Assembly: GCA_965216875.1 (NCBI GenBank)
Contig: OZ244207.1
Coordinates: forward strand, 6,880,001-6,944,000
DNA length: 64,000 nt
DNA from: Rubripirellula sp.
GTDB taxonomy: Bacteria; Planctomycetota; Planctomycetia; Pirellulales; Pirellulaceae
Reading direction: 5' to 3'
Shown here: positions 42,854-45,828 of the stretch, piece by piece
How the letters are laid out: each line of letters begins with the position of its first letter
Position numbering within the stretch: position 1 is the first letter of the stretch
Made by a program: the position numbers and the translations under genes
Notes under the pieces: generated by a model
Databases searched by the model: none
What the model was told of the DNA's origin: nothing
The model's input: the letters and a program-made list of their open reading frames with translations, nothing else

Positions 42854-42962
42854 GCAACGGTGAATTTGGTGGGTCCCCCAAATTGGAGTTGAGCCCCGCC
42901 CCCGAGATTTGTTAGCTGTCGCGTCTTATGTAGTGCGAGGCACATACGAAGACGGGGACACC

Positions 42963-44138
42963 ATGAAACTGACTGCTCTTTTCGCGATCGTTTTGTTCAT
43001 CAACGCAGGGCTGCTTGGAGCGACGAGTGCGCGCTCGGCCGAATGGCCACCGGCGTTCGATCTGCAGCCGACAATTCAATCAAACGATCGACCGATCGGT
43101 TTGGTGGCAGGCTATTTTGATCAAGCCGAGCTTGCCTATCCGGCAACCCAAGCCGTTGACGGAACGACGAACACGTCCAACGTGATTGCGGCCAGTCATC
43201 AAGAGCCAAACCCGACAGACACCCAGAACGCTGCTAGCAGCAACCAGAGCGTTGATAGCAGGAACCAGAGCGTTGATAGCAGGAACCAGAGCGTTGATTA
43301 CGGGAACCGGGGCCTTGATCATGAGGGCCCGGTTGTTGAACAAATCGAGTTTGTTGAACCGGCCGCTGAGCAGATCTACGTGCCTGGCGAACTTCTGGAT
43401 CACTCCAAGAATTCCAAACGCAAACGTTGGTCGAACTTCGAAGTTTCTGGCGACTATCTTTCGCTATGGCGACGCGATTATCGTCTCATTGACATTCGAA
43501 GCGACGCCATAACGGGGTTCCGTGTTCGCGTTGCGGGAGACTTAGCTTTTGCTCCCTACTCTGACCATACGGTCTTCTCTGTCTCGCATGTGGGTTTCGA
43601 AGAAAACCAACAACTACGCGACGGCAGTGTTACGTTCCAGGCCCAAAGCAGCATCGTCAACCTGGATTCCGTCATCTCGAAGTCCCATTCAAGGCCTTTC
43701 GATCTCATCACTGGATTGAGGTACACGCGGCTGGGAAACCGGTTCAACGCGCTGTCGAATTCGGCTGGTGGAGTCGATATCGAATTGACCAACCACCTGT
43801 TCGGCGCACATGTGGGAGGACGGTTTGCGGTTCAATCCACGAAGTCCATTCAAATGACCGGCTACGGTGTGGTTGGCGGCGCGTTCAACGAGATGCGTGG
43901 TGGCATACAAGATTTGGCTAGCAACGCTCAGGTAGCAGGTACGGACTCGGAGTTCAGTCCCTATTGGGACACTGAGTTGGGGATCAAGTATCAAGCCACC
44001 AAGATTCTGCGACTGGGAGTCGGCTTTCGCGCGATGGCCTACTACGAAGCCCCCGACTTGCTGGAGAACTTGGAAGGCGATACTCAGGAACGATGGCTTC
44101 TCGTCGGCCTCAACACGCAGGCGATGCTTCATTTCTAG
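42963..44138 (+). CDS. Putative outer-membrane beta-barrel protein (planctomycete BBP7/Lpg1974-like)
   Basis: Signal peptide, disordered linker, amphipathic strands (GLRYTRL, NHLFGAHVG, ELGIKY, LGVGFRA), C-terminal Phe. Confidence 0.65.
   Translation: MKLTALFAIVLFINAGLLGATSARSAEWPPAFDLQPTIQSNDRPIGLVAGYFDQAELAYPATQAVDGTTNTSNVIAASHQEPNPTDTQNAASSNQSVDSRNQSVDSRNQSVDYGNRGLDHEGPVVEQIEFVEPAAEQIYVPGELLDHSKNSKRKRWSNFEVSGDYLSLWRRDYRLIDIRSDAITGFRVRVAGDLAFAPYSDHTVFSVSHVGFEENQQLRDGSVTFQAQSSIVNLDSVISKSHSRPFDLITGLRYTRLGNRFNALSNSAGGVDIELTNHLFGAHVGGRFAVQSTKSIQMTGYGVVGGAFNEMRGGIQDLASNAQVAGTDSEFSPYWDTELGIKYQATKILRLGVGFRAMAYYEAPDLLENLEGDTQERWLLVGLNTQAMLHF
43242..43319 (+). repeat. In-frame 21-bp tandem repeat (NQSVDSR)
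   Basis: AACCAGAGCGTTGATAGCAGG twice exactly, plus two degenerating copies. Confidence 0.9.
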
Positions 44139-45484
44139 GTCGACCTGAGGCACGGAAACCTCTGACGATCTTGGTCCATCAAGGCGGCCTTCAGCTTGTT
44201 GAACAGGTGCCCGTCAACTTTGGACCGTTCGGCTTCGGTTGGATCGGCATGTAAAAACTTTTCGAGGCGACCACGTTCGGCAATCGAAAGCCGATAGACC
44301 GATTCGGACAGCGACATTGTGTTGAGAAGCCTTTGGACAAAGGTCTCGAATGAGAGATTGAAATGGGTCGCGGTTTCCAGGATCGAACGCGAAAGAATTG
44401 CGCGGGATGCTTGAGGATCGGCTCGTAGGAAACGTCCAAATCGCGGCGAATCGGTCGAGAACATCGCAGCGAGGAAACGGACCAGCAACCGGGCTCGACG
44501 ATTGCGAAGACTGCCTGCTGACAAGCTCGCAGCGATCTGGTCGAAGCAGAGCTTGTCGTAGGCCAAGTCGAGTCGCTCAAGGACGATCGCACATTCCGTC
44601 TCGTCAAATCCGGCACGCTCGATCGCGCCGCGAATCTTGCTGAGCATGAACTCGAATTCATCCTGTTCGTCGACGCCCGACGACGATTCCGACCGCGCAC
44701 AAGCTCCGGGGGCAATGGTTTCGGAAAGGTCCTTTTCGATCGCCTCATGGTAAATCGAAGTCGTCGCTCGCTGGGTACGCGCGACAGCGGCGATCGTGCG
44801 CATCGTCCCTTGAGAAAACTGAGCACGATGATTCGACAAAAAATGAATGACCACCGCATCCGATTCGTCTGGTGTCAGTCGACGACTGAGGCGAAGTGTT
44901 TCCTGGTCGAGCATCCAGAAGATCTGCGGGAGTAAGCGACCAGCAGACAATGGCAAACAGTACTGATCGGCAAGGGCTTGCCCGCGAAGGTTCTTGACCG
45001 ATTCGCGAAGTGTCTTGTCCAAATAGGAGAAAAACTTGACGCGTCGTTCCTTGTCGAACAACAAGATCGCCCTGCCAAGCACATTGCCCAACGCATCAAT
45101 GTCGACTTCAAATCGATCGGCATATTTGTGAAGTAGCGGTTGAAAGCGATAGTAGATTTCCCAAAACGAATCGAGCGCTTGGGACTCGAGCTCGGCATAA
45201 GCCCGTTGTTGGCGTGCGGTGAGTTGTTGGACGCGTGTCGAAAGGAGTGGCGTAAGCTCGGACAGATAATTGAAGAGGACGCCCTGACGCCGGCCGTCGT
45301 CGGCGGGAGTGAATGTGTTTTCTCTCAGGTCGACGCCAAACGAGTTGCGCAAACCAAGTTTGAAGACAAAAATCGCCTCGAGATGACGTTGCAATGTTCC
45401 ACCGTCGAGGTGATCAATCGGGCGATCACCCGCTGCGTTGATGAGGATCGCTTCATCGACGGCGGTAGGGTTGCGTTTCTTCAT
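44135..45484 (-). CDS. Hypothetical protein, divergent sigma70-like (regions 2-4) with C-terminal extension
   Basis: LGRAILLFDKERRVKFFSYL resembles region 2; LSRRLTPDE resembles region 3; FDETECAIVLERL...FDQIAASL...LRNRRARLL resembles region 4. Confidence 0.6.
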   Translation of the reverse strand: MKKRNPTAVDEAILINAAGDRPIDHLDGGTLQRHLEAIFVFKLGLRNSFGVDLRENTFTPADDGRRQGVLFNYLSELTPLLSTRVQQLTARQQRAYAELESQALDSFWEIYYRFQPLLHKYADRFEVDIDALGNVLGRAILLFDKERRVKFFSYLDKTLRESVKNLRGQALADQYCLPLSAGRLLPQIFWMLDQETLRLSRRLTPDESDAVVIHFLSNHRAQFSQGTMRTIAAVARTQRATTSIYHEAIEKDLSETIAPGACARSESSSGVDEQDEFEFMLSKIRGAIERAGFDETECAIVLERLDLAYDKLCFDQIAASLSAGSLRNRRARLLVRFLAAMFSTDSPRFGRFLRADPQASRAILSRSILETATHFNLSFETFVQRLLNTMSLSESVYRLSIAERGRLEKFLHADPTEAERSKVDGHLFNKLKAALMDQDRQRFPCLRST

Positions 45485-45534: not shown

Positions 45535-45828
45535 TCAGGAGGTCGCGGCGGGATCTTCAATCCACTTTGCGAAGCATCGATTGCAGAGCGAAATCGTGAC
45601 GTGGCGATGCACTTGATCTTGCGCTTCCTGGGCCGATGTGTTTTGAAACGAATCGGCGAGCTGCTGGTATTCATCACGAAGATGCTGTGGATCCAGATCC
45701 GACCGAATCTCAAGCACGGGCGGCGTCGGGTCTGCCACGGCGTCGATCGTCACTTCGTAAAACTCGCCGTGGCCCTCTGATAGAGTCGATAAGCAGCGGG
45801 CGCACAGGCGAGTGTTGTCGTCGTTCAT
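45535..45828 (-). CDS. Small putative zinc-finger protein
   Basis: CARC at N-terminus and LCNRC near C-terminus; fits between co-oriented genes. Confidence 0.75.
   Translation of the reverse strand: MNDDNTRLCARCLSTLSEGHGEFYEVTIDAVADPTPPVLEIRSDLDPQHLRDEYQQLADSFQNTSAQEAQDQVHRHVTISLCNRCFAKWIEDPAATS

Follow-up and report, generated by a model that had tools for sequence, protein, structure and literature searches.

The Locus and Its Gene

The window considered here, a stretch of 64,000 nucleotides from Rubripirellula sp. (contig OZ244207.1, positions 6,880,001 to 6,944,000 of the forward strand), contains at 44135..45484 (-) a gene for a protein of 449 amino acids, P0001, which, judging from profile comparisons and a predicted structure, is a very divergent member of the sigma70 family. 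Its predicted domains follow the order 1.2, non-conserved region (NCR), 2, 3, and 4, and these are followed by a unique C-terminal domain. The open reading frame is supported by a protein search, which gave 34 proteins (41 with a profile) with identities of 41-61%, the query aside, the full-length homologues being 41-59% identical; a public contig, possibly from the source sample, agrees with the sequence without a single difference. The gene occurs in one copy in its own genome and has a G+C content of 0.547, versus 0.563 for the genome. The motifs on which a preliminary description of this DNA had based its proposal of a sigma70-like protein were all found in the 449-codon frame, in the order given there.

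P0001 matches no Pfam family and no relevant NCBIfam family, and in its family no sigma Pfam model rises above the cut-off: Sigma70_r2 is touched by two of the 34 aligned homologues, with a best E of 0.085. Long sigma70 factors with four domains can thus escape Pfam and NCBIfam, so that the counts of planctomycete sigmas are incomplete.

Membership of the Sigma70 Family

The family profile was found to be colinear with sigma regions 2-3-4 over 173 columns, with a probability of about 95% in hhalign; the sigma2 part alone gave a probability of 80% (E 1.3e-5), and the sigma3 part alone was not significant by the same method. The predicted model has a predicted local distance difference test (pLDDT) score of 85, and sigma70-family chains rank first with it in two independent structure searches. 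Its residues 13-345 superpose on full-length sigmas at a structural identity of 12-16%, and its sigma2 superposes on fragments of pro-sigmaK and RpoS with a root-mean-square deviation (rmsd) of 1.7-1.9 Å over 87-89 residues. Between them, the predicted structure and the profile show a sigma2 fold, a sigma4 helix-turn-helix, and a colinear sigma2-sigma3-sigma4 arrangement with a flexible 3.2 linker. The preliminary description had asked for just such a comparison and had named the lack of a match to sigma2 and sigma4 as the refuting outcome; this outcome was not seen, the two lines of evidence agree, and its suggestion of an unclassified alternative sigma is backed by both.

The domains can be placed along the gene as follows, all on the (-) strand. 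The predicted region 1.2 comprises two helices (residues 13-49; 45338..45448), with residue 13 of the model corresponding to residue 96 of Thermus sigmaA; this region is not significant by sequence profile alone, and its first helix is lost or diverged in clade B of the family. Residues 50-100 (45185..45337), which are helical in the model and are placed by the superposition after 1.2 and before 2.1, form a short predicted NCR of approximate boundaries. What had been described as an extra N-terminal domain is, on this superposition, sigma1.2 plus the NCR. Sigma2 (regions 2.1-2.4; residues 101-175; 44960..45184) is located by hhalign and by rmsd; within it, the core-binding helix 2.2 (residues 126-142; 45059..45109) is placed by an hhalign anchor, and regions 2.3-2.4 (residues 143-168; 44981..45058) are predicted from residue conservation to be the surface for -10 recognition and melting. 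Sigma3 (3.0-3.1; residues 176-241; 44762..44959), in which P178, R183, and W190 are invariant, is colinear in the full profile alignment. It is followed, at the position of sigma3.2 (the sigma finger), by an acidic linker predicted to be disordered (residues 242-272; 44669..44761; pLDDT below 50), which in most rows of the alignment begins with S-L-D and is 31-34 residues long, with a mean of 6.8 acidic residues.

Sigma4 (residues 273-345; 44450..44668) has conserved flap-facing hydrophobic residues and a helix-turn-helix whose turn lacks two residues, a shortening common to 35/35 full-length homologues; here and below, residue counts refer to these 35 rows, three partial rows of the 38 in the alignment having been dropped. 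The remaining residues, 346-449 (44138..44449), form a helical C-terminal domain, a tail of about 104 residues that is conserved in all 35. The extra C-terminal domain of the preliminary description is thereby borne out, while the internal repeat that it reported in this tail found no support. The tail has no confident match and matches no SnoaL, TPR, or cysteine-rich model in Pfam; a weak fold match may connect it with the POU-specific/CUT-like (lambda-repressor-like) DNA-binding fold.

A Shortened Helix 2.2 and a Conserved DNA-Facing Surface

The first reading of the sequence overlooked a real anomaly, the deletion of one turn (four residues) from the core-binding helix 2.2. The span between the equivalents of D403 and F419 is 13 in 35/35 family rows, as against 17 in 8/8 group 1/2-type, 21/21 FliA, and 39/41 extracytoplasmic function (ECF) rows; none of the 70 comparator sigmas lacks a turn of this helix, and all of the full-length family rows do. 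In this respect, the family can serve as a natural experiment with the best conserved of the contacts between sigma and the polymerase. The acidic motif D-x-D-D of region 2.2 is kept in most clade A rows and is defective in clade B.

The tryptophan dyad W433-W434 (WW) is indeed absent, as had been noted, and is replaced by K157 (35/35) and by T, S, or C at 158 (35/35; K157-T158 in P0001). This absence is less unusual than was supposed. Neither dyad position is W in any of the 21 FliA rows, the dyad is QR in FliA of E. coli and HW in RpoH, and four of the eight long sigmas in the host genome have no WW. One passage of PMC10216364 ranks the dyads WW > HW > QR, every one of them being active, and PMC12784957, in the part that concerns sigma28, describes a factor without the tryptophan wedge in which the -11 base stacks on the Y430 equivalent and a conserved R82 is needed. 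For sigmas that belong to neither group 1 nor group 2, having no WW is the normal condition.

The missing dyad therefore lends no support to a melting-deficient mimic, because working sigmas of group 3 also do without WW; moreover, the family keeps the equivalents of K414 (R138, 35/35), F419 (F/Y143, 35/35), R423 (R147, 30/35), Y430 (Y154, 35/35), and R436 (R160, 34/35). P453 is also retained (P178, 35/35), and other positions have changed in a consistent manner, with E161 for Q437 (33/35), K164 for T440 (35/35), and L for K418 (35/35). The near invariance of the DNA-facing residues in regions 2.3-3.0 and 4.2 argues, at the level of sequence, against a pure decoy that would sequester core RNA polymerase. 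The DNA-facing side is better kept than the helix facing beta-prime, which is the reverse of what such a decoy predicts.

Other long sigmas of the host have the dyads QV, WA, and YW (sigma2 matches at G000:C1 1717011-1717205, 7209228-7209404, and 3764758-3764952), and those at 1717011-1717205 and 7209228-7209404 have no Sigma70_r3 match and keep group 1-like regions 2 and 4. Close to the beginning of a 620-codon frame in the same genome (G000:C1:2712843-2714702 (-)), Sigma70_r2 gives a weak match, and a long unrelated stretch comes after it; the frame may encode a fusion between a sigma-like domain and another protein.

Distribution, Selection, and Neighbourhood

The named homologues, all labelled hypothetical, belong to planctomycetes such as species of Stieleria and Rhodopirellula. 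A full HMMER search against 1.84 billion representatives gave 16 clusters; nothing in it linked the family to ordinary sigmas. Homologues are present in 10 of the 251 genomes of the host's family (4 of 126 genera) and in none of 400 other genomes sampled across the phylum; by genus, they occur in 6/6 genomes of g66, 13/19 of g60, and 2/5 of g15. No description of the family was found in the literature searched.

Intact full-length homologues (35 rows) reach down to about 36% identity with their surface residues invariant, and the nonsynonymous divergence (dN) is 0.36-0.48, with the synonymous divergence (dS) saturated in 8/10 pairs. Decay is also seen. In genome G137, a deletion has left of the gene two short stretches of its C-terminal part, which are out of frame with each other (L020:8660-8883) and come right after an intact copy of the 97-aa gene described below; the homologue of G135 (L019:11400-13042) ends after residue 133 and is followed by an RNase H gene; P0040 has an internal deletion in which regions 2.2-3.2 are missing; and two single-contig g60 genomes contain no match to the gene. 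Intact homologues, dN and dS, remnants, and absences together indicate a gene that is, on these comparisons, under purifying selection yet dispensable.

Gene neighbours are kept within a genus only, and no recurring anti-sigma-like partner was found near the gene in the loci examined. Upstream of it in the window lies the gene for a 97-aa protein with two CxxC motifs (45535..45828 (-)) and without a Pfam family at cut-off. Its homologues occur in 43/251 genomes of the family, in varied contexts, and it adjoins the sigma-like gene in the three g1 genomes examined and not at the other loci inspected; it is a neighbour in the host genus only and no dedicated partner. On the other side, a convergent gene for 409 amino acids (42909-44138 (+)), with a weak match to the BBP7 beta-barrel and a short tandem repeat near 43240-43290, has a stop that overlaps the stop of the sigma-like gene. 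In a g66 genome (G066), an ECF sigma and a Ser/Thr kinase are encoded as a pair directly downstream of the homologue (L014:10200-12576), with homologous genes in L096 (G663).

A promoter-like element lies upstream of the homologue in four of the six g66 genomes (L014:8507-8550 in G066, L095, L096, and L021). It consists of an A-tract and TTGAC-N18-GATAAA, with conserved ends and a divergent spacer; the presumed -12 position is a G, and -7 is not a T. No genome-wide enrichment of TTGAC-N18-GATAAA was found. The element suggests that the gene may be transcribed in those genomes.

Possible Functions

The best explanation, which is held with modest confidence as probable, is that P0001 would be a dispensable alternative sigma that binds core RNA polymerase weakly and opens a limited number of stringently defined promoters, and that is likely tuned by its tail. 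Sigma4 would dock on the beta flap via its conserved hydrophobic residues, and the shortened helix 2.2 would hold the clamp helices of beta-prime less strongly. Regions 2.3-2.4 would then flip the -11 base with the equivalents of Y430 and F419, with K157 and R160 taking the place of the tryptophan wedge, as in sigma28, while the changes at 434, 437, 440, and 441 and the altered region 4.2 would direct the enzyme to non-housekeeping promoters. As there is no anti-sigma gene nearby, control is proposed to lie with the fused tail, which could be an inhibitory or sensory extension or could add a DNA-binding module upstream of -35; this may be likened to the ECF sigmas without anti-sigmas that, in the relevant part of PMC8999054, are run by C-terminal extensions. 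A bolder and rather doubtful version is a new architectural class: a group 2-like sigma with a short core-binding helix and a lambda-repressor-like domain behind sigma4, which would read an operator upstream of -35 as a built-in activator, and which, in clade B, may have turned into a promoter regulator that works independently of core.

The conservation of the DNA contacts also leaves room for a sigma-derived regulator without productive docking on the beta-prime clamp, which would use regions 2.4/3.0 and 4.2 together with the tail to bind promoters or operators and would either repress or act as a co-activator of other holoenzymes. This is most plausible in clade B; for the family it is unlikely, if the strongest of the rivals, since the parts specific to the polymerase have been kept (the acidic 3.2 linker, the flap-facing residues, and the Y430/F419 base-flipping residues) and the fold match of the tail is weak. 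A melting-dead decoy, which would damp other sigmas by sequestering core RNA polymerase or by titrating an anti-sigma, is less probable still. The missing WW, the loss of K418, and the conserved flap-facing side of sigma4 would fit it, and the 93 Sigma70_r2 matches in the genome make competition for core plausible; however, a decoy should keep its core-binding helix and let its DNA side drift, the opposite of what is observed, the WW is absent from working sigmas, and the neighbourhood has neither an anti-sigma gene nor any other conserved partner.

Another possibility, and a distinctly improbable one, is that the sigma is inactive by itself and depends on a trans-acting helper for core loading or melting, such as an assembly factor, an activator, or a kinase as for EcfP. 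The defective acidic motif in clade B is reminiscent of EcfP, which, as portrayed in one portion of PMC8999054, has no DAED and must be phosphorylated, and the kinase pair of G066 and G663 would provide a candidate. However, most clade A rows have the motif, no Ser/Thr is conserved at residues 127-137 of the family, and, of the five g66 loci compared, two have the pair, which was not seen in any other genus. A decaying relic without present function would account for the remnant, the truncation, the internal deletion, and the two g60 absences, but the many intact, divergent homologues, in which surface residues are invariant and dS is saturated, and the presence of the gene in every g66 genome, have already largely refuted it on sequence grounds; its likelihood is very slight. 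The part played by the tail, the binding of core, and the choice of promoters are open to direct tests because named homologues exist in cultured Stieleria species.

Comparison with Known Sigma Groups

The best structural and profile match of the family is with groups 1 and 2 (Thermus and mycobacterial sigmaA, E. coli RpoD and RpoS, and M. tuberculosis sigmaB), with which it shares the order 1.2-NCR-2-3-3.2-4 and the equivalents of Y430, F419, R423, R436, P453, E555, and R562. It differs from them in its low structural identity (12-16%), its lack of WW, its shorter 2.1-2.2 loop, its different region 4.2, its helix 2.2 one turn short, its helix-turn-helix two residues short, and its extra tail of about 104 residues. 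Group 1 is not where it belongs, as region 1.2 starts at residue 13, leaving no sigma1.1, the dyad is K-T/S/C, and the gene appears dispensable. These features are closer to group 2, the members of which have no sigma1.1 and are dispensable according to the passage concerned in PMC4598750; like them, the family has a two-helix 1.2 with an NCR, and 2, 3, and 4. In sequence, however, it departs from group 2 at the dyad, at positions 437, 440, and 441, and in region 4.2.

Like FliA/sigma28 (TIGR02479) and sigma32 of group 3, the family has no tryptophan wedge, has a similar acidic start of helix 2.2, and lacks Q406/E407, and the FliA profile (TIGR02479) gives a probability of 91.6% against it. 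FliA, however, has R at 434 in 21/21 rows, where the family has T, S, or C, and has a full-length helix 2.2 and no NCR. Group 3 sigmas, as summarized in a section of PMC10216364, have neither 1.2 nor NCR, the position of which is occupied in the model by residues 13-100. The host carries an ordinary FliA of its own, and no flagellar or FlgM-like neighbours were found in the loci examined. With the ECF sigmas that carry regulatory C-terminal extensions (ECF41, ECF42, CorE) and with EcfP (ECF43), which is activated by phosphorylation, the family shares the lack of a cognate anti-sigma gene, a C-terminal extension of about 100 amino acids, and, in clade B, an altered acidic motif in 2.2; the ECF profile can be aligned to its helix of region 4.2. 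Unlike group 4 (ECF), it has sigma3, 1.2, and an NCR, and the ECF profile reaches a probability of 7%. There is no group among 1-4 to which the family conforms in every respect.
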